NCBI RefSeq assembly: GCF_024223415.1
Contig: NZ_CP100500.1
Length of the DNA stretch: 64,000 nt
Direction: 5' to 3' (one strand)
DNA from: Escherichia coli
GTDB taxonomy: Bacteria; Pseudomonadota; Gammaproteobacteria; Enterobacterales; Enterobacteriaceae
In this document: one piece after another, positions 2,518-58,598 of the stretch
Position numbering within the stretch: position 1 is the stretch's first letter
Layout of the letters: each line of letters opens with the position of its first letter
Program-made: the position numbers and the translations under genes
The notes under the pieces: model-generated
What the model was told of the DNA's origin: nothing
Database searches by the model: none
Seen by the model: the letters and a program-made list of their open reading frames with translations, nothing else

Positions 2518-4293
2518 TTAACGCTTGTACAACGGACCGTAGTTCTGGCAAGCGCGGTAATCCTGGCCTTCAATATCCATGCCGTGCGCAGCCCAGGCAG
2601 AAGGACGATACACTTTGGTCTCTTCAACGTTATGCATACATACCGGGATACGCAGCATGGAGGCGAGAGTGATAAAGTCTGCGCCAACGTGGCCGATGGT
2701 CAGAACCCCATGGTTAGCGCCCCAGTTCGCCATTACCGAGTACACATCCGTAAACGGCCCTTTACCGGTGAGGCGCGGTGCAAACCAGGTGGTTGGCCAG
2801 GTTGAGTTGGTACGTTTGTTGAGGATGTCATGCACATCCTTCGGCAATTCCACGCTCCAGCCTTCCGCGATTTGCAGTACCGGTCCCAGGCCTTTGATGA
2901 TGTTGACACGAGTCATGGTGAACGGGACGCCGCCTTCGGTAAGGAAGCGGGAAGAGTAACCGCCGCCACGGAAGTATTCGTGGATCGCCGGGCACCATTC
3001 GGTAGCGGCGAGGCAAGCGTCAGCCTCTTGCTGAGAGATTTCCCAGTGTGGCTTCATCGTCGGGTTACCTTCGCTGTCGCGTTGTTTACAGGAACCGTCC
3101 AGCGCAGCAGAACCGGAGTTGATCAAATGGATGATGCCGTGTTCTGCCAGTCCATCCAGTTTATGCCCCGTTACACGCTCAATTGCTTCTGGTGACCAGT
3201 AGGTACGCACATCGGCAAATACCTGAGCGGTGCCGGTGAGCTGGTGACCCATTAGCATTGCCACGCCGTTAAGACTGTCGTTTTCGGTCGCCACGACAAA
3301 GGGTTCGCGCACGCCATTCCAGTCAAATGAACTGTTAAGGATCGCTTCGGCGGTGTCGCCATTGGGATATTGATCGGTCCAGTGGCGTTGTCCCTGGAAG
3401 CCCGCAGCGATGGCGTTGTAGCCAAGTGATTCTTCCACGCGACCAATATCGGCCAGTTTGCTGTTGCCTTGCATCATGTCGCGGATACACATCGCCATCA
3501 GTAAACTTTCGCGCAGAACTGCGCGGCTTTGCTCGGCATTGCGTTGATACTGTTTGTTATTTTCATCTTCGCCATAGCGGAAGTTTTTATCAGCCCAGGC
3601 CAGTGCCATTTCCAGTTCGGCTTCGTCGTAAATCTTCTGATCGATACGGCGACGCAGTTCGGTCATATCCACCGCCTGGACTTTCATTCCCAGCCAGGAT
3701 TCAAAGAAGTTGTGATCAACAATAGAACCGGCGATACCCATCGAAACGCCGCCCAGCGACAGATAGCTTTTACCTTTCATGCTGGCGACGGCCAAACCGG
3801 CGCGGGCAAAGCGCAGCAGTTTTTCTTCAACATCGGCAGGAATCGATGTGTCATCGGCATCCTGAACGTCATGACCGTAAATGGAGAATGCCGGGATGCC
3901 TTTCTGGCTGTGAGCTGCCAGAGCCGCTGCCAGGTAAACAGCGCCGGGGCGTTCAGTGCCGTTAAAGCCCCAAATGGCTTTCGGGCGGGTTGGATCCATG
4001 TCGATGGTTTCACTGCCATAGCACCAGCAAGGCGTTACCGTAATGGTGAGGCCTACATTCTGGCTGCTGAATTTTTCTTCGCAAGCAGCGGCTTCAGCCA
4101 TACCCGCGATACAGGTATCGGAAATGACACACTCGACGGCAGCTCCGCAGGCATGGCGCAGTTTCTCGGTCAGCAGTGCGGCCGTAGCTTTCGCCATATT
4201 CATTGTTTGTTCTTCAAGCGACTCACGAACACCCATGCGACGACCGTCAATAACCGGGCGGATACCAATTTTCGGTAAGCTGATTTTTTTCAT
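2518..4293 (-). CDS. fucI: L-fucose isomerase
   Basis: 591-aa [22 protein letters not shown]...; length and sequence match FucI as recalled. Confidence 0.95.
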
Positions 4294-10358: not shown

Positions 10359-11648
10359 TTAGCTGAACAGAGAGTAGAAGATTGCGGAGATTGCAATCAG
10401 ACCCATCACGACAACGAATACGTTGCTGATGTGACCGCTGTACTTACGCATTGCCGGTACTTTCTGAATTGCGTACATCGGCATCAGGAACAGGATCATC
10501 GCGATGATTGGGCCGCCCAGGGTTTCAATCATACCCAGGATGCTCGGGTTCAGGGTGGCAACAATCCAGGTCGTTACCAGCATGAACAGCGCAGTGATAC
10601 GGTTCAGCTTGTTGATTTCGATAGACTTACCTTTACCACGCAGAGATTTAATCACCATACCGTTGAAGCCTTCACGTGCGCCCAGGTAGTGGCCGAGGAA
10701 GGATTTGGTGATAGCGATAATCGCGATAATCGGAGCCATCCACGCGATAACCGGTGCGTTAAAGTGGTTAGCCAGGTAAGACAGAATCGAGATGTTCTGC
10801 TCTTTAGCCGCAGCCAGGTCTGCCGGAGTCAGGCTCAGTACGCAGCTGAAGACGAAGAACATTACGGTCAGCACCATCATGATGTGTGCGAATGCCAGGA
10901 TCTTCGAGCATTTCTGTTCTGCCATATCGCCGTACTCTTCACGCTTCGCAACGGCGAAAGAAGAGATGATCGGAGAGTGGTTGAACGAGAACACCATTAC
11001 CGGAATTGCCAGCCACAGGGTCATCCACAGACCGTTTCCGGTTGCAGATGCAGTGTCCAGAGACAGCGTTTCCAGTGCTGCGCCGTTCCACTGCGGGATC
11101 AGGTACAGAGCCAGCAGCATCAATACGCCAACAAACGGGAACACCAGAATACTCATCGCTTTAACGATCATCTGCTCACCGAAGCGAACGATGGTCATCA
11201 TACCCACGATCAGGATCAGCGACAGAATCGCACGCGGCGGTGGCGTCATACCCAGCTGGTGAGACATGAAGCTTTCAACTGTATTGGTGATTGCCACGCT
11301 ATAAACCAGCAGGATCGGGTAGATAGCGAAGAAGTAGAGCAGGGTAATCAGTTTACCTGCGCCAATACCAAAGTGTTCTTCTACAACCTCGGTGATGTCT
11401 TCGCCCGGGTTTTTACCAGACAGTACGAAGCGAGTCAGGCCGCGGTGAGCAAAAAACGTCATCGGGAACGCAAGGATAGCCATGATGATCAGCGGGATCA
11501 TACCGCCAACACCGGCGTTGATTGGCAGGAACAGCACGCCCGCGCCGATTGCCGTGCCGTAAAGGCCCAGCATCCACATGGTGTCTGTCTTGCGCCAGGC
11601 ACTACGAGAGTCTTTCGACGCAATCGTGCTGGTTTGAGTCGTTTCCAT
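10359..11648 (-). CDS. sdaC: Serine:H+ symporter (HAAAP family)
   Basis: 429-aa polytopic ORF; CAGGAG SD; immediately upstream of sdaB. Confidence 0.95.
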
Positions 11649-33294: not shown

Positions 33295-34200
33295 TTACCA
33301 GCGACCGGACGCGCCGCCACCTCCAGAAGAACCGCCACCGCCGCTAAACCCGCCGCCTGAGCCTCCGCCACTTGAGCCGCCACCGGAAGAGGATGAAGAA
33401 GAACCTTTTCTTGAAGCTCTTTCTTTACTGAGTTTTTTGTATTTGGCGCGTAGCTTTTTATTGACGATAAGCCAAAAAATAACCAGTGGTACGATCGCAA
33501 AAGGCGTTAACATACCGCAGGCAACGATTAAATTGGTCCATGGTCCTGGCTCGGCAACATAGAGGAATACCATCCCGTAAATGGCGCCAGTGAGAGTGAT
33601 CCAGGGTAAATTCGACGGATCGGTAAAAACAATAAAATATGAAAGTACCGCCAGCAATATAATTACAGCAAGCGATAATGGAATAGGGGGATTGATACTG
33701 TAATAATCCCCCCTGTCTTCCGGTAATTCACCATTCAACAGAAGCGCGCCGATATTTTCGCTTGCCAGTGTTAATCCACCCATCAGGTCATCACTTTTGA
33801 AGGCAGGGATCAATATATCCCTGATAATCTTCGCCGCTTGCAGGTCGGTAACCACCCCTTCCAGCCCGTAGCCAACCTCAATACGAACAGCATGATCCTC
33901 CCAGGCAACCAGAAGTAAAATACCATCGTTTCTCTGCTTATCTCCCAGTTTCCAGCTATCAAAAACCCTTGTAGCATATTGTTCAATGGAATCGTCTCCG
34001 GTAGACGGCACTACTAATACAGCGACCTGCGCCCGTGTTTTATGTGTAATATCCTGCAGTTGCTGTGTCAGTGATTGTTGTTCAGAAGTGCTTAACGTAC
34101 CAGTAATATCGGTCACCTGTTGGCGCAGTTCCGGCACAGCAATTTGCTGGGCAAGCCCAGGAAGACACCACAAAGTGAATAGAATAAAGATTAAGCGCAT
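33295..34200 (-). CDS. TPM-domain membrane protein (YgcG-like), paralogue 1
   Basis: ORF track begins at a TTG (34212); the ATG at 34200 gives MRLIFILFTLWCLPGLAQQ... (signal peptide), a TPM domain (TGDDSIEQYATRVFDSWKLGDK...), TM helices and a Gly/Ser-rich C-terminus ending SGRW. Confidence 0.8.
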   Translation of the reverse strand: MRLIFILFTLWCLPGLAQQIAVPELRQQVTDITGTLSTSEQQSLTQQLQDITHKTRAQVAVLVVPSTGDDSIEQYATRVFDSWKLGDKQRNDGILLLVAWEDHAVRIEVGYGLEGVVTDLQAAKIIRDILIPAFKSDDLMGGLTLASENIGALLLNGELPEDRGDYYSINPPIPLSLAVIILLAVLSYFIVFTDPSNLPWITLTGAIYGMVFLYVAEPGPWTNLIVACGMLTPFAIVPLVIFWLIVNKKLRAKYKKLSKERASRKGSSSSSSGGGSSGGGSGGGFSGGGGSSGGGGASGRW

Positions 34201-34205
34201 TACGA

Positions 34206-35354
34206 TCACCAACGGCCGGATGAACCGCCGCCTCCTGAAGAACCGCCACCACCGCGGAAAGAATTTCTCGACGAAGAGCGAGAGTGAGCATTACGATTCC
34301 CCGTTTTCCTGTTGCTTTTTTCTCCTGATCCCAGCTTAAGATTGCCAGTAAATTTGGCCACAATGATCAGCAGAACGATGCCAGCAATGGTTATTGGACC
34401 GATAAAATGATCAATTAACCCAATAATTGTTGAGATGAATGCAATATCTTTATTACTGGCGAACACTAGGCACCATCCCACAATAATTATCAGCATCACG
34501 ACAAACAATGAATTTCGTCCTGATTCACGAACCTGCGGAGTCTTCTTTTGTTTTTTCACTTTAGCGTTTTTATTTTTTGGGGTCAGCATCATAGGAAATA
34601 CGCGGCACATATTAAAAACTACCGCGAGACGCTGCTTGCAGGTTGTTGCTAACAATAAACTAAAACAAACGACCGATACCCGCCGAATGATGACATCGTC
34701 CTGAAAGGAGAAAAACCAGACCATAGGGGTAATCATCGATATCATCCATATGCCACGCCGTGGGCGGCTGGCAAATCGCCAGAGGACAACGATGGCAACG
34801 ATCATCAGCAGTGTCCAGGCAAGACATGGCAGCGAACGTTGCGGATTAGCAAACAGATGATTGGCTAAAGCATCCAAAGGGCTAATGTTCGCTTTGATAT
34901 GGGTAAACTGTGCGATGCTTTCAATTCCGCCCGTTAATCCAGCAAAGAGATTGTTTTTTTCGAATTCTGGCTGCATATGGTAACGAACAATTTGCGCAGC
35001 TTGTTCCGGCGGCAACATCTGTTCCAGTCCATGTCCAATCTTCATTGACGCCAGCCCTTCCGGCCATACGACGAGAATTAAGATACCTTCGCCATATCGC
35101 TTCTCTCCAACGGGTTTCCAGTGATATACCCCGTATCTCTGCGAGGCTGCAAGTTTAATGTTTTTGCCCCCTGTGGTCGGCGTAACCAACACGGCCACCT
35201 GGAAGTGGTTTTGCTGCTCGAGAGTCTGTAATTGTTGAGTTAAAGCAGTTTGTTCTTCTGTCGTTAATGTCCCGGTTAAGTCAGTTACTGAAGGCCATTG
35301 TTCAGCGAATACCTGAAAACCGCATAGCATCAGAAGTAAGAGAAAAATACGCAT
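34206..35354 (-). CDS. TPM-domain membrane protein, paralogue 2 (longer, multi-TM)
   Basis: 382-aa ORF; signal peptide MRIFLLLLMLCGFQVFA; AAGGA SD; C-terminus GGGGSSGGGGSSGRW. Confidence 0.8.
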   Translation of the reverse strand: MRIFLLLLMLCGFQVFAEQWPSVTDLTGTLTTEEQTALTQQLQTLEQQNHFQVAVLVTPTTGGKNIKLAASQRYGVYHWKPVGEKRYGEGILILVVWPEGLASMKIGHGLEQMLPPEQAAQIVRYHMQPEFEKNNLFAGLTGGIESIAQFTHIKANISPLDALANHLFANPQRSLPCLAWTLLMIVAIVVLWRFASRPRRGIWMISMITPMVWFFSFQDDVIIRRVSVVCFSLLLATTCKQRLAVVFNMCRVFPMMLTPKNKNAKVKKQKKTPQVRESGRNSLFVVMLIIIVGWCLVFASNKDIAFISTIIGLIDHFIGPITIAGIVLLIIVAKFTGNLKLGSGEKSNRKTGNRNAHSRSSSRNSFRGGGGSSGGGGSSGRW

Positions 35355-35368
35355 ATCAATTCCTTTTG

Positions 35369-36262
35369 TTACCAGCGCCCGGAAGCGCCACCGCCACCAG
35401 ATGAACCGCCACCACCGCTGAAATTGTCATTGTTGAATGAAGAGGATGACGATGATGAATAGTGGGAGGAAGAATTGCTTCTTGTATGGCGTGATGGCTG
35501 GTTGACATCACGCATCAAATCCCGAACTTTTTTGCCGAAGGGGGTAAAAGCGATGGCGACAGCCAGGAACGGTGTGGCGAAGCAGAGTAATGTTGCGAGT
35601 ACTCCCCAGCTTCCGCTGAAGCCTGCTATAGGTAAAACAAAGGCCAGTACAATAGCTGCGAAGCAAATTACTCCCAGCGTTTTGATATATCCTCTGGCAG
35701 AAATAAACGTCAGTACTATCGCCCAGACTAACAATGCCCACCAACCGCTAAAGGGCAAAGGGTGATCGGTCGGTGTTATCGTTGCTAAATTATTCCCCGT
35801 AAGACGACTTTCAATATCGCTGATCCCCTTTTGTAAACCGCCAGCTAGGTCGCCTTTTTTAAATGCAGGAATAATACTGTTGCGAATAATTTTCCTGGAC
35901 TGTGCATCCGTAATAATACCTTCCAGCCCGTAACCGATTTCAATACGCACGGTATGATCCTGCCAGGCGACTAACAGTAGAACGCCATCATCACGGTCTT
36001 TATCACCCGGTTTCCAGCTATCGAATACCCGCGTTGCGTACTGCTCGATGGTTTCATCGCCTGTTGTTTCAACCACTAACACGACCAGTTGTGCGTGGCT
36101 TTTTTGCGTCAGGGCTTTAATCTGGTTGGTCAGGGTGTTTACTTCGCTGTTTGTTAATGTGCCCGTTAAGTCATTCACATACTTGGGTGATTCAGGTACT
36201 GGAATTTGTGTGGCAAACACAGATGAACAGAAGAAAGCCATAAGGAAGATAAAATTTCGCAT
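35369..36262 (-). CDS. TPM-domain membrane protein, paralogue 3
   Basis: ORF track to 36292; the ATG at 36262 (MRNFIFLMAFFCSSVFATQ...) has a GGGGAAG SD and a signal-peptide-like N-terminus; TPM core nearly identical to paralogue 1; C-terminus GGGGSSGGGGASGRW. Confidence 0.8.
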   Translation of the reverse strand: MRNFIFLMAFFCSSVFATQIPVPESPKYVNDLTGTLTNSEVNTLTNQIKALTQKSHAQLVVLVVETTGDETIEQYATRVFDSWKPGDKDRDDGVLLLVAWQDHTVRIEIGYGLEGIITDAQSRKIIRNSIIPAFKKGDLAGGLQKGISDIESRLTGNNLATITPTDHPLPFSGWWALLVWAIVLTFISARGYIKTLGVICFAAIVLAFVLPIAGFSGSWGVLATLLCFATPFLAVAIAFTPFGKKVRDLMRDVNQPSRHTRSNSSSHYSSSSSSSFNNDNFSGGGGSSGGGGASGRW

Positions 36263-36275
36263 AGAACTTCCCCGC

Positions 36276-36878
36276 TTAATGAGCATTAGCATTCTGGCTA
36301 AAATCTATTGTTGGGGCTTTACTTACTGCGGCGACATCATCCGGCAAATAATTTTTCTTTGGTGTGTAATCCATGACCTTTGCGGTTAACACAGCGGGGA
36401 ATTTGCGGATAGTGACATTATATTGTTCAATGGCTTTAATATATCTTCCTCGCGCAACGGCAATCCGATTTTCACTTCCTTCAAGCTGTACCATTAAATT
36501 TTGATAGAGTTCCTGAGATTTTAACTCAGGGTAACGCTCACTAATTATCGTTAACTGACCGAGAGTGCGAGTCACCTGCGCTTGAGCCTGTTGCCAGGCT
36601 TGTAATTTTTGTTCATCTCCCGGAGTTTGCTGAAGATCGCTACTGGCGCGATTAGCCTGGCTACGAGCCAATGTTACGGCTTCCAGTACATCTCGTTCAT
36701 GGCTGGAATAACCTTTAATGCTGGCGACAAGATTAGGAATAAGATCGGCGCGACGTTGATATTGATTCAATACCTCAGACCAGGAGGCGTTAACCTGCTC
36801 ATCATAGGTTTGAATATCGTTATATCCACAGCCTGATAAATTGAAAATAAATATAATTACGATGAATATTCTGAGCAT
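36276..36878 (-). CDS. lemA: LemA-family lipoprotein
   Basis: 200-aa ORF with lipobox (FNLSGC) and LemA-family helical region; first gene of the four-gene minus-strand operon. Confidence 0.8.
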   Translation of the reverse strand: MLRIFIVIIFIFNLSGCGYNDIQTYDEQVNASWSEVLNQYQRRADLIPNLVASIKGYSSHERDVLEAVTLARSQANRASSDLQQTPGDEQKLQAWQQAQAQVTRTLGQLTIISERYPELKSQELYQNLMVQLEGSENRIAVARGRYIKAIEQYNVTIRKFPAVLTAKVMDYTPKKNYLPDDVAAVSKAPTIDFSQNANAH

Positions 36879-37050
36879 GTTTAAATCCCTTTTAATTAAT
36901 TCCTTAAAACATAATACTCTGCTTCATTTTATTCTTTATGATCTAATCCACTTTTTGCCATAAACCTGCCTGTAACAGAATGTTAATAAGACATGATTGT
37001 TGTGGCAGGATCTGCAATAATTAACAATTATCCACTTCACAGAGAATGCT

Positions 37051-37722
37051 ATGCAGTACCCGATTAACGAGATGTTCCAGACCCTGCAAGGTGAGGGTTA
37101 CTTTACCGGCGTCCCCGCCATTTTTATTCGTTTACAGGGATGCCCGGTTGGCTGTGCCTGGTGCGACACCAAACACACCTGGGAAAAGCTTGAGGATCGG
37201 GAAGTCTCCCTTTTCAGCATTCTGGCGAAGACCAAAGAGAGTGATAAGTGGGGGGCGGCGAGCAGTGAAGATTTGCTGGCTGTCATTGGTCGCCAGGGAT
37301 ACACCGCGCGGCATGTGGTGATTACGGGTGGTGAGCCTTGCATTCATGATTTGCTACCACTGACAGATCTGCTCGAAAAGAACGGTTTTAGCTGCCAGAT
37401 CGAAACCAGTGGTACTCATGAGGTACGCTGCACACCGAATACCTGGGTTACCGTATCACCAAAGCTGAACATGCGCGGCGGCTATGAAGTGTTGTCACAG
37501 GCACTGGAGCGAGCCAACGAAATCAAGCATCCAGTGGGACGCGTACGTGATATTGAAGCACTGGATGAACTTTTGGCGACGCTGACCGATGATAAACCGC
37601 GAGTCATTGCACTGCAGCCGATTAGCCAAAAGGATGATGCCACACGTTTGTGCATTGAAACCTGCATTGCGCGTAATTGGCGTTTGTCGATGCAAACCCA
37701 TAAATATTTAAATATTGCCTGA
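37051..37722 (+). CDS. queE: 7-carboxy-7-deazaguanine synthase (radical SAM)
   Basis: 223-aa ORF MQYPINEMFQTLQGEGYFTGVPAIFIRLQGCPVGCAWCDTKHTW (CxxxCxxC-type cluster motif). Confidence 0.93.
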   Translation: MQYPINEMFQTLQGEGYFTGVPAIFIRLQGCPVGCAWCDTKHTWEKLEDREVSLFSILAKTKESDKWGAASSEDLLAVIGRQGYTARHVVITGGEPCIHDLLPLTDLLEKNGFSCQIETSGTHEVRCTPNTWVTVSPKLNMRGGYEVLSQALERANEIKHPVGRVRDIEALDELLATLTDDKPRVIALQPISQKDDATRLCIETCIARNWRLSMQTHKYLNIA

Positions 37723-38060
37723 TTAAACATTTATAAGCGTTATAAATGGGTGGAAACTGTAAAGACTTCTACTCATTTATATTCTTTGTCGTCTCTGAAA
37801 AACCTCCATTTTGCCCATCCTGAACTAATCATTATCATTCTCTACAAATTCTGTGGCGTTAATTTTTCGCTGGAGTGAAAACTATTGCGGTAAAGTTTGG
37901 TAGATTTTAGTTTGTATAGAGTTATTTTAAATATTTACCTTTTTAATCAATGGGTTAAGTGCTCTTTAACATGATGGATGTGTTGTTTGTGTGATACTGT
38001 AAAGTTGGTAGATTGTGACTGGCTTAAAAAATCATTAATTAATAATAGGTTATGTTTAGA
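37723..38060 (+). promoter_or_regulatory. CRISPR leader (AT-rich, promoter-containing)
   Basis: About 340 bp of AT-rich sequence ending ...TATGTTTAGA immediately before repeat 1; repeat orientation places the leader on this side. Confidence 0.65.
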
Positions 38061-38760
38061 GAGTTCCCCGCGCTAGCGGGGATAAACCGGCTGGATACCG
38101 ATCAATTCAATATCGTTTTACGAGTTCCCCGCGCTAGCGGGGATAAACCGGAATACCGATTCATAACGGCGGAAATGTGGATGAGTTCCCCGCGCTAGCG
38201 GGGATAAACCGGTTAATGATGTCAGTGGCGGTTTTCGTATCGCGAGTTCCCCGCGCTAGCGGGGATAAACCGAGTGAGGCAATCAAATGACCCGCCCGCA
38301 ATTAGAGTTCCCCGCGCCAGCGGGGATAAACCGTAAATCCCTCGCGCATCGAGTCAAATGTCGGAGAGTTCCCCGCGCCAGCGGGGATAAACCGGTCGCT
38401 GGAACGGGGCGAATAAAGAGGGGCTCGAGTTCCCCGCGCCAGCGGGGATAAACCGACAGCTCTTTCCCGTCGTTATCCAGTTGGTAAGAGTTCCCCGCGC
38501 CAGCGGGGATAAACCATATGATTCACGAATTACAGGAAACCAGCCGCCGAGTTCCCCGCGTCAGCGGGGGTAAACCGCTATCGGGGTGATTCTGCCAATG
38601 CTCAGAGTGGTGTTCCCCGCGCCAGCGGGGATAAACCGAGCGTTTGCTCCGGGTGGAATAACCCTGGCGGGTGTTCCCCGCTCCAGCGGGGATAAACCGT
38701 TTGCTGGAACCCAAAACTCAGCGCACAGGTTGTGTTCCCCGCGCCAGCGGGGATAAACCA
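38061..38760 (+). CRISPR. Type I-E CRISPR array, 12 repeats and 11 spacers (CRISPR2.3-equivalent locus between queE and ygcE)
   Basis: 29-nt repeat GAGTTCCCCGCGCCAGCGGGGATAAACCG with 32-nt spacers at an exact 61-bp period; repeats start at 38061, 38122, 38183, 38244, 38305, 38366, 38427, 38488, 38549, 38610, 38671, 38732; repeats 1 to 4 carry GCGCTAGC, repeats 10 to 12 begin GTGTT, repeats 8 and 12 end in A. Confidence 0.97.
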
Positions 38761-39229
38761 CCATATAACCCGTTATCTCTTTCTCAAGTTTTTATATTAG
38801 CTGTACTTGTAATAAGCAACATATCCACGTAACACCTCATGTTCAAAATAGTTCCCCATGCCAGATAAGTTCACAATTATCGATACAAAAAATTAAATTT
38901 AATCAAAGTGTTATTTGTATAATTCTTAAGCCGTTAAGAAATTTTAATCTATTATTTTTTTAATATTAATTAATGCCTGTTAATTTTTTCTTTAGTATAA
39001 CAGTGTATTTTTTAAGCTTGTTATTCATTGATTAAGTAATAAATCTGGAAATTTGTCTTTGTTTTGAGGCTAATGAGTGGTTTTACATAACCGCCTCTAT
39101 ACGCTGTTGATGAATAGTTCTTATGAATAAAGATATCCAGTTCATACTTTAAGTGAAAATTGATAAAGTGCGATTCGTATTGTCTTTTATTCTAAAGACA
39201 TCGAGTGTAGTTAATATTCCTTGTAAAAA
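38761..39229. other. AT-rich spacer block between the array and the remnant (possible second leader or H-NS-bound region)
   Basis: About 470 bp, strongly AT-rich, no ORF of 60 aa or more. Confidence 0.4.
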
Positions 39230-39351
39230 CAGGGATAAACCGAACTAGTTAAAGTTTTTATTATGTTCCCTGCATCAGCGGGGATAAACCGGACTTGTTA
39301 TCATTTTTTAAGTTGTCGAACTTATGTTCCCCGCGCCAGCGGGGATAACCA
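39230..39351 (+). CRISPR. Degenerate CRISPR remnant (CRISPR2.2-like): one truncated and two degenerate repeats
   Basis: CAGGGATAAACCG (partial), ATGTTCCCTGCATCAGCGGGGATAAACCG (5 mismatches) and ATGTTCCCCGCGCCAGCGGGGATAACCA (1-nt deletion); spacers of 20 and 32 nt. Confidence 0.75.
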
Positions 39352-39397
39352 TTCAGGTATGTTCAGGCCGGGCAGTTTCCCGCCCGGTCTTCCTCAC

Positions 39398-40876
39398 TTA
39401 CGCATTCGACCAGCTCTGGATCGAATCCGCATTCCCCAATTCCCCATGCATCACTTCATACGATTTTTTCAGGATCACATCAGTATGTTTGGTTAGGTCT
39501 TTGAAAATGCCTTTATTCATCGCGTCGTAGCGTTTGGCATTGCTCTCAATCGGTATAAAGATATCTTTCACGCGAACCATTTTATCGACAGCCGTTGCGT
39601 AATCCGGGTATAGCCCCAGACCTACCGCTGTATTAATCGCTGCCCCCAGGCTTGCACAACCGTTAATGGCGTTACGGCGTGCCGGAAGGTTGAACACGTC
39701 GGCAAAAATCTGCATAAACAGATCGCTGTTCGAACCGCCGCCAGTAATGATCACATGCTTTGCAAAGTGATTCATTTCATTACACATATTGTCGTAATTG
39801 TTCTTCAGCGTCAGCGCCACGCTTTCCAGTATAGAACGATATATCCATGCGTAATCCATGCTGGAATCAAAGCCGATCATAATCCCACGTTTGTAGGGTT
39901 CCCACGGGTTGGTCAGCCAGTCCAGCACCGTCATCAGACCATTACAGCCAGGCGGCACACAAGAAGCTTTTTTGTTGAGCAAATCTTCCGGTGAAAGATC
40001 CTGTGCTTTGGCATCCTGAATTAACGACTCGCCTAGCATGTCGCGCAGCCAGCTCACCGTCCACATGCCTTTACGGATACCGTAACCTTCATACAGCAAT
40101 GTTTGCGGAATAGAAGACATAATCGGCCAGTACGCCACCGGATCTTTCGGCAGTGCTTTGCCGTTCATCATCAATGCGATGTAAGTGCCAAGAGAAATTA
40201 CCGCCGTTTCATCATCCAGTAATCCGGCCCCCAGAGCTTCTACCGGTTTATCACTGGTGGTACAAACAACCGGCAGTCCTGCCGGGAAATGTGTCGCCAG
40301 TGCGGCTTGTGGTGTGATATGTCCGAGGACGGTGCCAGGCATTTGCACATCAAACAGCATATGACGGGGGATATTAAACTTATCCATTACCGCAGCATCT
40401 TCACTCCATGCCCAGCTCTTATAATCCACCGGCCACTGACCAAAATAGTTGGAGATATTGTCTTTAAACTCGCCGGTTAAGCGATGCGTCAGATAACCCG
40501 AAAAAGAGGTGACATAGGCCACGTCAGGATTAGTGTGTTCGTAGGGACGCGTTACGCGTGCATCCTGCCAGCTAATCAATGGCGCAGCTGGCGTGCCATC
40601 GGCTTTCAATAACGCACGGCAGCAACGGATGGATCCCAGACCAATACCGACAATATCTTCTTTATTCCCGGCAAACTGACTCATCAAATCGTGACCGGCA
40701 AAACATAATGATGCCCATAAATCGTCGTCAGGATGTTCTGCGGTATCGGCATCTGGCGTGTGCATCGGCTGCAATAAGCCTTTACCTTCGCAAACCACAT
40801 TACCTTCCAGATCGTACATCACCACTTTTGTGCTCTGACTTCCGCCATCAATCCCTATGATGTATTTTTTCGACAT
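39398..40876 (-). CDS. ygcE: FGGY-family carbohydrate kinase YgcE
   Basis: 492-aa ORF MSKKYIIGIDGGSQSTKVVMYDLEGNVV... (FGGY N- and C-terminal domains). Confidence 0.88.
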   Translation of the reverse strand: MSKKYIIGIDGGSQSTKVVMYDLEGNVVCEGKGLLQPMHTPDADTAEHPDDDLWASLCFAGHDLMSQFAGNKEDIVGIGLGSIRCCRALLKADGTPAAPLISWQDARVTRPYEHTNPDVAYVTSFSGYLTHRLTGEFKDNISNYFGQWPVDYKSWAWSEDAAVMDKFNIPRHMLFDVQMPGTVLGHITPQAALATHFPAGLPVVCTTSDKPVEALGAGLLDDETAVISLGTYIALMMNGKALPKDPVAYWPIMSSIPQTLLYEGYGIRKGMWTVSWLRDMLGESLIQDAKAQDLSPEDLLNKKASCVPPGCNGLMTVLDWLTNPWEPYKRGIMIGFDSSMDYAWIYRSILESVALTLKNNYDNMCNEMNHFAKHVIITGGGSNSDLFMQIFADVFNLPARRNAINGCASLGAAINTAVGLGLYPDYATAVDKMVRVKDIFIPIESNAKRYDAMNKGIFKDLTKHTDVILKKSYEVMHGELGNADSIQSWSNA

Positions 40877-55801: not shown

Positions 55802-58501
55802 ATGCGTAAATATCCTTTAAGTTTACTGAAGGATAAAAATATTGTGACTTTCTTTGATTTCTGGGGAAAAACCCGACGCGACGAGAAAGAAGGGGGTGAC
55901 GACTATCACCTTCTTTGCTGGCATTCGCTGGATGTGGCCGCGATGGGCTATTTAATGGTTAAAAGAAATTGCTTCGGGCTGGCTGATTATTTCCGTCAAT
56001 TAGGGATTTCTGACAAGGAACAGGCGGCTCAATTTTTCGCCTGGTTGTTGTGCTGGCACGATATTGGAAAATTTGCCCGCTCATTTCAGCAACTTTACCT
56101 GCACCCACAACTCAAGGTTCCGGAAGGCGCAAGAAAGAATTACGAAAAGATCTCTCATTCAACGCTGGGCTACTGGCTGTGGCATCATTATTTAAGTGAA
56201 TGCGAAGAATTGCTTCCTGCCTCTTCACTCTCTACTCGCAAACTTAAACGTGTAATAGCGATGTGGATGCCCATGACTACCGGGCATCATGGTCGCCCGC
56301 CTGACCGTATTGATGAACTGGATAATTTTCTGCCTGAAGACAAAGCTGCCGCGCGAGATTTTCTCCTTGAAATCAAGCCACTGTTTCCGCAGCTAGAGAT
56401 CCCCGCATTCTGGGATGATGACGAGGGCGTTGAACTTATAAAACAACTTTCCTGGTATATCTCTGCAACCGTCGTACTTGCAGACTGGACAGGATCGTCA
56501 ACGCGATTTTTTCCACGCGTCGCACAGACAATGGATATTGAAGATTACTGGCAAAAGGCTTTAGTTCAGGCTCAAAACGCATTAACCGTCTTTCCTCCAA
56601 AAGCAGAAACCGCGCCTTTCACCGGAATTAATACGCTGTTTCCTTTTATTGAGAATCCGAAACCGTTACAGCAAAAGGTGCTGGATCTGGATATCAGCCA
56701 GCCAGGACCGCAGTTATTTATTCTGGAGGATGTAACCGGCGCAGGTAAAACAGAAGCGGCGCTTATCCTGGCACACAGGTTGATGGCTGCGGGTAAAGCT
56801 CAGGGTTTGTTTTTTGGCCTGCCAACAATGGCAACGGCCAATGCCATGTACGATCGGCTGGTCAAAACCTGGCTTTCTTTCTATTCGCCAGAATCCCGCC
56901 CCAGCCTGGTGCTGGCACACAGTGCCCGCACATTAATGGACCGCTTTAATGAATCACTCTGGTCCGGTGATTTAGTCGGGTCAGAAGAACCGGATGAACA
57001 AACGTTCAGTCAGGGATGTGCGGCCTGGTTTGCCGACAGTAACAAGAAGGCGTTGCTGGCTGAAATTGGCGTCGGCAAGCTGGATCAGGCGATGATGGCA
57101 GTGATGCCGTTTAAACATAATAATCTGCGGCTTCTGGGGTTGAGTAACAAAATCCTGCTGGCTGATGAGATCCACGCCTGTGACGCTTACATGTCGTACA
57201 TTCTTGAAGGGTTGATTGAGCGACAGGTGCGTGGCGGAAACAGCGTCATTTTGCTTTCTGCTACGTTATCTCAACAGCAGCGCGACAAACTTGTCGCCGC
57301 CTTTGCGCGTGGCACAGAGGGCCAGCAAGAAGCTCCGTTCCTGGAAAAGGATGATTACCCCTGGCTGACGCATGTCACGAAATCCGATGTGCATTCGCAC
57401 CGGGTAGCGACGCGCAAAGACGTTGAGCGTAGCGTGAGCGTGGGTTGGCTTCATAGCGAACAAGAATGTATTGCGCGTATCGAATCAGCGGTAAGTCAGG
57501 GGAAATGCATCGCCTGGATCCGGAATTCTGTCGATGACGCTATTAAGGTTTATCGTCAGTTACTTGCCCGCGGCGTCATTCCTGCTTCCAGCCTTTCACT
57601 TTTTCATAGCCGCTTTGCTTTTAGCGATCGCCAGCGAATTGAAACGGAAACGCTGGCACGCTTTGGTAAAAATTGTAGTTTAAAAAGATCATCTCAAGTC
57701 ATTGTTTGTACACAAGTAATTGAGCAAAGTGTGGATATTGACCTGGACGAAATGATCTCCGACCTGGCCCCCATTGATTTGCTGATCCAGCGAGCGGGGC
57801 GATTACAACGGCATATTCGCGATATTAATGGTCAGTTAAAGCGTGATGGAAAAGACGAGCGTTCCCCTCCTGAATTGCTGATTCTGGCCCCCGTCTGGGA
57901 CGACGCTCCTGGTGACGAATGGTTCGGCAGTGCCATGCGTAACAGTGCATATGTCTACCCGGATCATGGGCGAATCTGGCTGACCCAGCGTGTGCTGCGT
58001 GAGCAAGGCGTTATTCAGATGCCACACTCAGCCCGCCTTCTTATTGAATCAGTCTACGGTGAGGACGTGGTAATGCCGGACGGATTTGCCCGCAGCGAGC
58101 AGGAGCAAGTGGGCAAATATTACTGCGATCGCTCAATGGCTAAAAAGTTTGTGCTGAACTTCAGGCCCGGCTATGCCGCCAATATCAACGATTACCTTCC
58201 GGAAAAGCTGTCGACACGTCTGGCTGAGGAATCTGTTTCCCTGTGGCTGGCTAGCTGTATTAACGGCGTGGTGAAGCCTTATGCCAGCGGTGCTCACGCA
58301 TGGGAAATGAGCGTTGTCAGAGTGCGCCGAAGCTGGTGGAAAAAACATCGGGATGAGTTTTCTTTACTGGAAGGGGAAGTGTTAAGGCAGTGGTGCATTG
58401 AACAGCGGCAAGATCCGGAGATGGCAAACGTGATTTTAGTCACCGATGACGAAAGTTGCGGGTATTCGGCTACGGAAGGATTGATTGGCAAGGTTGATTG
58501 A
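55802..58501 (+). CDS. cas3: Cas3 helicase-nuclease (HD domain plus superfamily-2 helicase), type I-E
   Basis: 899-aa ORF; HD motif (HLLCWHSLDVAA...WHDIGKF), Walker A (TGAGKTEAA), DEAH-like (LLADEIHA); start may be internal (GTG at 55844) because the ATG at 55802 lacks an SD. Confidence 0.92.
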   Translation: MRKYPLSLLKDKNIVTFFDFWGKTRRDEKEGGDDYHLLCWHSLDVAAMGYLMVKRNCFGLADYFRQLGISDKEQAAQFFAWLLCWHDIGKFARSFQQLYLHPQLKVPEGARKNYEKISHSTLGYWLWHHYLSECEELLPASSLSTRKLKRVIAMWMPMTTGHHGRPPDRIDELDNFLPEDKAAARDFLLEIKPLFPQLEIPAFWDDDEGVELIKQLSWYISATVVLADWTGSSTRFFPRVAQTMDIEDYWQKALVQAQNALTVFPPKAETAPFTGINTLFPFIENPKPLQQKVLDLDISQPGPQLFILEDVTGAGKTEAALILAHRLMAAGKAQGLFFGLPTMATANAMYDRLVKTWLSFYSPESRPSLVLAHSARTLMDRFNESLWSGDLVGSEEPDEQTFSQGCAAWFADSNKKALLAEIGVGKLDQAMMAVMPFKHNNLRLLGLSNKILLADEIHACDAYMSYILEGLIERQVRGGNSVILLSATLSQQQRDKLVAAFARGTEGQQEAPFLEKDDYPWLTHVTKSDVHSHRVATRKDVERSVSVGWLHSEQECIARIESAVSQGKCIAWIRNSVDDAIKVYRQLLARGVIPASSLSLFHSRFAFSDRQRIETETLARFGKNCSLKRSSQVIVCTQVIEQSVDIDLDEMISDLAPIDLLIQRAGRLQRHIRDINGQLKRDGKDERSPPELLILAPVWDDAPGDEWFGSAMRNSAYVYPDHGRIWLTQRVLREQGVIQMPHSARLLIESVYGEDVVMPDGFARSEQEQVGKYYCDRSMAKKFVLNFRPGYAANINDYLPEKLSTRLAEESVSLWLASCINGVVKPYASGAHAWEMSVVRVRRSWWKKHRDEFSLLEGEVLRQWCIEQRQDPEMANVILVTDDESCGYSATEGLIGKVD

Positions 58502-58598
58502 GATGTCTGCGACAGGACTCTCTGAATAGTTGATATACAGAAAAGGATGGAAAGATGGACAACCGACCTGGGATGGTCTTTTTTACGAGAGGATGCGT

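Follow-up and report, generated by a model that had tools for sequence, protein, structure and literature searches.

An AT-rich separator and the conserved CRISPR2.2 mini-array at the trailer end of the type I-E CRISPR-II locus of Escherichia coli

We analysed a window of 64,000 nucleotides from an E. coli chromosome (contig NZ_CP100500.1 of assembly GCF_024223415.1) and assign the interval 38761-39351, with high confidence in the explanation as a whole, to a known part of the E. coli type I-E CRISPR-II locus: its trailer end, made of a 0.5-kb AT-rich separator and the CRISPR2.2 mini-array. The feature has already been described, and neither the block nor the mini-array is new. The unexpected part is that a mini-array regarded as "degenerate", together with about 120 nt upstream of it, is conserved more strongly than both the coding sequence next to it and the functional leader. 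The repeats are predicted to be competent for processing, the conservation is strong and the element has no known role, and this is found in the most studied bacterium. Comparison of genomes suggests that the segment 39096-39335 is probably kept by purifying selection; what the segment would do is a matter for more tentative proposals, which are discussed below.

The CRISPR2.2 array of the ygcE–ygcF/queE locus was reportedly named by Díez-Villaseñor et al. in 2010, and the name is in use in PMC4489801, PMC3903273 and PMC10910852. In the literature it comprises three units beside CRISPR2.3 (PMC4489801, PMC3903273), namely three type-2 (I-E) repeats with two invariable spacers (PMC4489801). The arrays are "separated by 0.5 kb" (PMC3903273), the AT-rich separator of ~0.5 kb has been described (PMC10910852, PMC3903273), and leaders adjoin CRISPR2.1 and CRISPR2.3 only (PMC3903273), these being the only two leaders that are recognised (PMC3737337). 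The interval in our window shows all of these properties: it lies between queE and ygcE and 3' of CRISPR2.3, and it consists of an AT-rich separator of ~0.5 kb followed by three repeats with two invariable spacers (Table 1). An earlier note on this DNA, made from the sequence alone, had proposed a "decayed second array" as one of two possibilities, and this wording agrees with the name that the literature gives to the element.

Of 5,426 complete E. coli genomes, 4,123, K-12 among them, contain the stretch 38761-39397 with an identity of 95-100% and a coverage of 80% or more, and the carriers of the block number ~4,150 of the 5,426 (~76%). Compared with K-12 CRISPR2.2, the window is 97.8% identical over 38761-39397 and 100% identical over 39096-39335. 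There is no structural difference from the described CRISPR2.2, and the particular traits of this strain are the loop of unit C, which reads GCCA and not GTCA, and a rare haplotype of the block centre. The window is thus typical of non-B2 E. coli with a split CRISPR-II locus, and for specialists in E. coli CRISPR the feature is of textbook level. In the RefSeq annotation only the upstream array is labelled as CRISPR, and 38761-39397 carries no annotation.

Table 1. Features of the CRISPR-II locus, in positions of the 64,000-nt window
Feature	Position	Strand	Description
queE (ygcF)	37051..37722	+	left flanking gene of CRISPR-II locus; from ORF and annotation of orthologous loci
leader 2.3	37723..38060	+	AT-rich, 338 nt, 30% G+C; leader of the active array
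CRISPR2.3 array	38061..38760	+	12 type I-E repeats, 61-nt period, 11 spacers
AT-rich block, 5' part	38761..38850	.	moderate conservation; pi 0.019 in genomes, 0.013 in metagenome contigs
candidate extra decayed half-repeat AGTTCCCCATGCCAG	38850..38864	+	13/15 match to repeat 5' half
AT-rich block, hypervariable centre	38851..39031	.	17-30% G+C; deep haplotypes, indels
AT-rich block, conserved 3' part	39032..39213	.	near-invariant from 39096 on
CRISPR2.2 unit A ATATTCCTTGTAAAAACAGGGATAAACCG	39214..39242	+	29 nt
spacer 1 AACTAGTTAAAGTTTTTATT	39243..39262	+	20 nt, invariant
CRISPR2.2 unit B ATGTTCCCTGCATCAGCGGGGATAAACCG	39263..39291	+	29 nt
spacer 2 GACTTGTTATCATTTTTTAAGTTGTCGAACTT	39292..39323	+	32 nt, invariant
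unit C ATGTTCCCCGCGCCAGCGGGGATAACCA	39324..39351	+	28 nt; ancestral terminal repeat
trailer and ygcE 3' flank	39352..39397	-	46 nt; G+C-rich hairpin ~39366-39389; polymorphic, pi 0.051 and 0.036
ygcE (FGGY-family kinase)	39398..40876	-	right flanking gene, convergent with arrays

The last full repeat of CRISPR2.3 ends at 38760, and the block that follows (38761-39213) has 27% G+C, compared with 50% for the window, and contains no ORF longer than 31 aa, so that the AT-rich non-coding stretch noticed earlier is borne out. Its length had been put at about 470 bp, which is the length as far as the recognisable GGGATAAACC of unit A; in the register of the repeats the block measures 453 nt. Within its 5' part, positions 38763-38792 are invariant in 15 strains. 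The three repeat-like units with spacers of 20 and 32 nt were likewise recovered, in register: units B and C lie within 3 mismatches of the 27-nt repeat core, for which shuffled windows gave 0 matches.

All three units are predicted to fold as the consensus repeat does, ....(((((((....)))))))......., with a 7-bp stem and a 4-nt loop, and the predicted energies are -7.9 kcal/mol for A, -12.1 for B and -15.1 for C, against -15.1 for the consensus repeat. Unit A is changed at 11 of its 29 positions, all within the first 18, and keeps GGGATAAACCG intact; three changes fall into the 5' single-stranded part and three into the loop, and the stem is preserved through one G.U pair and two double changes from C-G to U-A. 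Unit B carries five changes, at positions 1, 2 and 9 and at loop positions 12 and 13, its stem being preserved with one G.U pair (position 9) and its handle being intact. The stem of C is intact as well. The earlier claim that the stems are disrupted therefore does not agree with the predicted folds, and the claim that the repeats retain the 5' handle is correct for two units out of three: the 8-nt handle ATAAACCG is whole in A and B, and C has a deletion of 1 nt (ATAACCA). Processing by Cas6e had been called unlikely, and this, too, is contradicted by the predicted folds. Spacer 2 is bounded by the intact 5' handle of B and the intact 3' hairpin of C, and in form it is a canonical crRNA unit.

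The placement of the changes in A and B is non-random: the final 11 positions of A are all unchanged (P = 0.0009, a value subject to some ascertainment bias because A was recognised by this very part), and so are the final 16 of B (P = 0.011). We also considered the compensatory stem changes in A as a proof of selection and rejected this argument, as by our own calculation their chance probability is ~0.3 given AT-biased transitions. When spacers 1 and 2 are compared in register, 12 of the first 17 bases match (P = 0.002); therefore the A–spacer 1 unit is probably an old, decayed duplicate of the B–spacer 2 unit from which 12 nt have been lost.

The other part of the earlier proposal was that the array once had its own leader, i.e. 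that the AT-rich block once served as leader to a second, independent array which used to acquire spacers and is now dead. The block is indeed AT-rich, it immediately precedes unit A and is correctly oriented, and its length (453 nt) is near that of leader 2.3 (338 nt), a leader known under this name from PMC3737337 and PMC3903273 and conserved in E. albertii, E. whittamii and B2 strains. However, the similarity of the block to leader 2.3 was not above that of shuffles, and the same was true for K-12 leader 2.1 when compared in the matching (+) orientation; against its reverse complement the result was borderline (a score of 16, reached by 4 of 300 shuffles) and is taken as chance. A blastn search of the block against the leaders of queE-linked arrays in Klebsiella, Pseudocitrobacter, Phytobacter and Pluralibacter gave no matches. 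In the collections of phages, plasmids and E. coli genomes the block has no homologue beyond this locus: none was found in phages, the only three matches among plasmids were E. coli chromosomes mislabelled as plasmids, and no paralogue was found elsewhere in E. coli genomes. In the outgroups leader 2.3 is joined to unit C with no block between, spacer polymorphism at the A end was not seen in more than 4,000 genomes, and the literature, as stated above, recognises leaders 2.1 and 2.3 only. The comparison of orthologous loci, by which the relation of the block to CRISPR leaders was to be checked, has thus turned out against the leader idea, and we consider a former leader very unlikely.

CRISPR2.2 can also be compared with an active type I-E array. 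The Cas6e hairpin is there in A, B and C, but spacers are not acquired at a leader end, no gain having been seen in more than 4,000 genomes, and instead of spacers of ~32 nt that match mobile elements there are spacers of 20 and 32 nt with no significant matches. The spacer content of the mini-array is fixed apart from rare deletions of units. A promoter consensus scan gave 6 sites where 4.6 were expected, one of them on the + strand at 38870-38899 in the variable centre; the scan for promoters and terminators found nothing above chance and no + strand site in the conserved part. A crude scan for the IHF consensus was uninformative, as leader 2.3 itself also fails near its repeat.

The history of the locus was approached through queE synteny in 80 species and through E. 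coli genomes without the block. Loci without the block are organised as leader 2.3, then 0-4 repeat–spacer units and then a terminal repeat, GAGTTCCCCGCGTCAGCGGGGATAACCATTCAGG; such loci were seen in E. albertii, in E. whittamii, in strain L003 and in the typical B2 strains APEC O2:K1:H7 and Nissle 1917, all of which are without the block, unit A and unit B. The ...GCGGGGATAACCATTCAGG end of unit C is common to B2 E. coli, L003, E. albertii and E. whittamii. As the terminal repeat is present across Escherichia, with the block or without it, sequence comparison identifies unit C as the ancestral degenerate terminal repeat of the queE-linked array, adjoining ygcE. The CRISPR2 arrays of all Escherichia and Salmonella have a terminal repeat that is degenerate at its 3' end (PMC2886076), and unit C, degenerated at the 3' end, is typical of degenerate terminal repeats in general. 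In contrast to decayed trailer ends in general, the array in the window encloses a non-repeat block of 453 nt, and its decayed units are frozen and not drifting.

The block, unit A, spacer 1, unit B and spacer 2 together make up 563 nt, which sit in the position of a single spacer, with the last normal repeat on one side and unit C on the other. The block was found only in E. coli that are not of B2 type, and among the 80 queE-syntenic loci of other Enterobacteriaceae it had no matches. The fused CRISPR2.2-3 arrays of B2 E. coli, E. albertii and E. whittamii have the same leader 2.3 and the same terminal repeat end GGGGATAACCATTCAGG beside the ygcE terminator, but they are without the block, A, B and both invariant spacers, and their terminal repeat starts with G(A/G)G where the one in the window starts with AT. 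In all lineages without the block the terminal repeats share this G(A/G)G start and the GTCA loop. A shared start and loop are not expected from independent repeat-to-repeat deletions, which together with parsimony favours a single gain: the ancestor of non-B2 E. coli likely acquired the block, A and B in one recombination event, the less likely alternative being repeated loss elsewhere. This polarity of gain and loss is read from few outgroups, with E. fergusonii, E. marmotae and E. ruysiae not among them. The second possibility raised in the earlier note, a trailer remnant left by an internal deletion, thereby keeps one half of its content, as unit C appears to be the ancestral terminal repeat; the block, A and B look more like an insertion in non-B2 E. 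coli. A mobile element was considered as the source of the block and rejected, because the block has no terminal inverted repeats.

The degree of conservation along the interval is very uneven. The segment 39096-39336 is at least 99% identical to the window in 4,002 of 4,163 genomes, about three quarters being at 100%, whereas the same level of identity is reached by 38855-39095 in just 13 of 4,153 genomes and by 241 nt of the ygcE coding sequence in 1,468 of 5,371. An alignment of diverse strains gives the same picture, with a hypervariable block centre and ~240 nt (39096-39335) that are identical. In 15 genomes pi was 0.000 for unit A, spacer 1 and spacer 2, 0.009 for unit B and 0.013 for the 3' part of the block, compared with 0.079 for the block centre, 0.066 for the third codon positions of ygcE and 0.014 for its positions 1 and 2; leader 2.3, which is known to be functional, has a pi of 0.02-0.05 per 30-nt window. 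A 240-nt sliding window moved over 3.4 kb in 9 strains not chosen for variation there had its minimum at 39092-39331, with one segregating site and a pi of 0.0009. The finding was repeated in 52 full-length metagenome contigs that are independent of the genome set (all E. coli, with ygcE 96-99% identical to the window), in which pi was 0.004 for the conserved segment, 0.049 for the centre and 0.063 for the third positions of ygcE, and the variants of the conserved segment were nearly all singletons. The two spacers, invariant in the 15 genomes, are near-invariant in these contigs and in the 4,002 of 4,163 genomes. Altogether, polymorphism in the last ~120 nt of the block and in A, spacer 1, B and spacer 2 is 15- to 70-fold lower than at the neighbouring neutral sites.

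We read the near-invariance of 39096-39335 beside variable neighbours as purifying selection, which on these patterns of diversity is the probable cause. Several facts call for caution. Low-diversity windows are also present at the 5' ends of queE and yqcE, so that a valley of diversity is no proof of direct function; a variant of unit B that breaks the stem (39271 T>A) segregates at ~6%; and ~3% of the carriers have partial deletions, e.g. strain L088, which is without B and spacer 2. One would argue from such data that the element is a functionless fossil and that the low diversity of 39096-39335 is due to a localised sweep, to recombination or hitchhiking, or to a mutational cold spot. Losses of units and insertions of IS elements are tolerated, B2 E. 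coli and sister species do without the element with no obvious consequence, and searches for a promoter, a target, a protospacer, a supported ORF or an Rfam family found none; the comparable valleys at queE and yqcE fit this explanation as well. However, the valley is bounded on both sides by old polymorphism of intermediate frequency at most 100 nt away, it holds both in the 4,002 of 4,163 genomes and in the independent metagenome sample, and its variants are nearly all singletons. Moreover, both the functional leader 2.3 and codon positions 1 and 2 of ygcE are more diverse than the valley. Units A and B, too, have strongly diverged from the consensus in the past, yet they are frozen now. Therefore we regard the fossil as a rather unlikely explanation, though one to be taken seriously, and continue with selective maintenance as the preferred reading of the conservation.

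If the segment is maintained by selection, it may be a functional element of non-B2 E. coli and not a dead remnant, for example a structured + strand RNA processed by Cas6e that carries fixed housekeeping or regulatory guides in a CreR/crlRNA-like manner at the trailer of an array; we offer this as a tentative proposal. Action through a processed + strand RNA would be the most likely mode, but it is speculative. A + strand transcript could reach CRISPR2.2 from the promoter of leader 2.3 by read-through, or it could begin at a weak start within the AT-rich block, and in cas-positive cells Cas6e could cut it at B and C and perhaps at A. The predicted products are one canonical 61-nt crRNA with spacer 2 and one crRNA-like RNA of 49 nt with the 20-nt spacer 1, the length of which equals 32 minus 2 x 6 nt. 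Were the conservation to reflect function, the class of CRISPR-derived regulatory RNAs, which was recognised only lately, would be extended to a new position, the array trailer in place of the cas operon.

Targets for the guides of such an RNA were looked for in several ways. Targets of spacers 1 and 2 with a seed and a PAM occurred at chance counts in the 64-kb window, in the K-12 cas3–casA region and in the leaders. A site in leader 2.3 at 37764 (AAA PAM, 2 mismatches in the first 14 positions) was considered as a target and rejected as chance. The best match of spacer 2 to phages had E >= 0.3, and its search against IMG/VR with every sixth base free returned only this chromosomal locus; no protospacer was found in phages, plasmids or IMG/VR. 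A K-12 ChIP-seq study reports no Cascade binding attributable to CRISPR-II crRNAs and gives a count of "at least 19 crRNAs" for K-12, a count stated without mention of this mini-array (PMC5904413).

A more specific form of this idea is that CRISPR2.2 is a CreR/CreA-like (crlRNA) regulatory mini-array, in which invariant spacers pair partly with the promoter of the cas genes or of a toxin and Cascade represses it. Cascade has a 6-nt periodicity, into which a spacer of 20 nt, i.e. 32 minus 12 nt, would fit. Like the creA, creR and crlRNA mini-arrays of type I systems, CRISPR2.2 has few and degenerate repeats, invariant spacers and strong conservation, with a handle upstream and a hairpin downstream: unit A keeps mainly the 5' handle, and B and C keep the hairpin and the 3' handle, the pattern known from the PsiR1 and PsiR2 repeats of creR (bioRxiv 10.1101/2023.03.10.532045). 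It also occurs mostly in genomes with I-E cas genes. The block co-occurs with these genes: cas7e is present in 2,630 + 1,129 = 3,759 genomes, compared with ~4,150 that have the block. Unlike these mini-arrays, CRISPR2.2 lies outside the cas intergenic region. The known I-E mini-arrays are situated between cas3 and cas8e, whereas CRISPR2.2 is 16 kb away from the I-E cas operon, which starts at 55802 and has a cas3–cse1 gap of 28 nt, and it is found at the trailer of an array. Neither a full seed with a canonical PAM nor a match of at least 10 nt was found in the leaders, elsewhere in the window or in the promoter regions of the cas genes of both I-E variants; a partial target flanked by a PAM was likewise not found in the window, the K-12 cas region and the leaders, and the scan revealed no promoter of its own. 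Additionally, the conservation reaches ~120 nt upstream, which a crRNA-like RNA would not need. Thus it is quite improbable that CRISPR2.2 is a CreR-like array in this strict sense.

The same upstream conservation leads to another thought, namely that the segment acts independently of Cas as a structured small RNA, as the gene of a small protein, as a bidirectional terminator or RNA-stabilising hairpin cluster, or as a platform for nucleoid proteins. The conserved part includes the non-repeat sequence 39096-39213, and at least 243 genomes that have no cas7e retain the segment with an identity of >=99%. It is located exactly where the convergent transcription units of CRISPR2.3 and ygcE meet. 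Both strands fold better than shuffles (z = -5.3 for the + strand of 39032-39360, z = -4.1 for the other strand), but this signal comes largely from the repeat hairpins. Moreover, the conserved part yielded neither an intrinsic terminator nor a promoter, the sequence right after the ygcE stop codon is polymorphic, and no Rfam match was obtained, the scan of 36500-40500 at E <= 1 giving two chance-level matches only. As for a small protein, none of the small ORFs in the interval is convincing; the ORF of 31 aa at 39153-39248 starts with GTG, lacks a Shine-Dalgarno sequence and encodes just a short hydrophobic stretch. A Cas-independent element is therefore unlikely in our estimate, and the Cas6e-processed RNA is the form in which we would put the tentative proposal of function.

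A further decayed half-repeat, possible but uncertain, may lie at 38850-38864, where the block passes into its hypervariable centre. In other strains it is weaker or eroded; in the strain of the window its local alignment score is 22, compared with a maximum of 18 in 200 shuffles.

A deeply divergent allele of queE (1244-1915 in L003, the queE-ygcE locus of an E. coli type without the AT-rich block) was found by the E. coli genome search in 355 of the 5,426 complete genomes, and its identity is 91% with the common allele and 94% with that of E. whittamii. The neighboring ygcE, however, is normal (96.6% identity), and this pattern points to an introgressed segment with its boundary at the CRISPR array. 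In SCPM-O-B-8794, which is designated 'E. coli', both queE and ygcE are just 92% identical to those of the window, and because of this low identity the strain probably represents another Escherichia species. No CRISPR at all is present between its queE and ygcE (L005, 6670-6810), where the gap consists only of about 130 nt of unrelated spacer and the ygcE hairpin.

The other side of queE varies as well. The eno-queE interval of the window (33295-36878, minus strand) carries one LemA-family ORF and three TPM-domain-like ORFs that contain direct repeats rich in Gly (families D3 and D4); the ORF names were taken from the annotation of orthologous loci and not from a domain search of the window. 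K-12-type strains harbor ygcG and yqcG at this place instead, and thus, judged by its gene content, the eno-queE segment is a polymorphic cassette.

Deletions were observed at the CRISPR-II locus of other strains. In the queE-ygcE loci L087, L088 and L090 (about 3639-4240 and equivalents) only the final 456 nt of ygcE are left, fused in the direction of queD–cysJ, which matches a reported 12-kb deletion reaching up to the CRISPR array (PMC5359238). In L088, a unit deletion of 61 nt has also removed unit B and spacer 2 of CRISPR2.2. IS elements have also inserted at the locus, as listed in the table.

IS insertions at the CRISPR-II locus
Element	Site	Genome or locus	Coordinates
IS1	within the AT-rich block	H12 (NZ_CP075472.1)	
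IS3	queE-array gap	L087	1078-2240
IS1	interrupts the block after 62 nt; the accompanying deletion reaches as far as ygcW	L089	3118-3815

Within the CRISPR2.3 array, the four leader-proximal repeats (38061-38272) share the loop GCTA instead of GCCA, which is what copying of each new repeat from the first one would produce, and repeat 9 (38549) has two private changes. The 30 nt directly after the last repeat (38763-38792, CATATAACCCGTTATCTCTTTCTCAAGTTT) are invariant in 15 strains and form a second small conserved patch.

The chromosomal CRISPR-II locus is also included in a 'viral' contig of IMG/VR (L102, 11480-12500), where ygcE breaks off near 11480. This sequence probably comes from the host, at a junction with a prophage or one created by the assembly.

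By the ORF boundaries, the gap between cas3 and cse1 in the I-E variant of the window is only about 28 nt (58501-58530), whereas in K-12 the two genes are separated by a 414-nt intergenic region which holds Pcas (L099, 4496-4909). Therefore, the window strain has no space for a cas3–cas8e regulatory mini-array.
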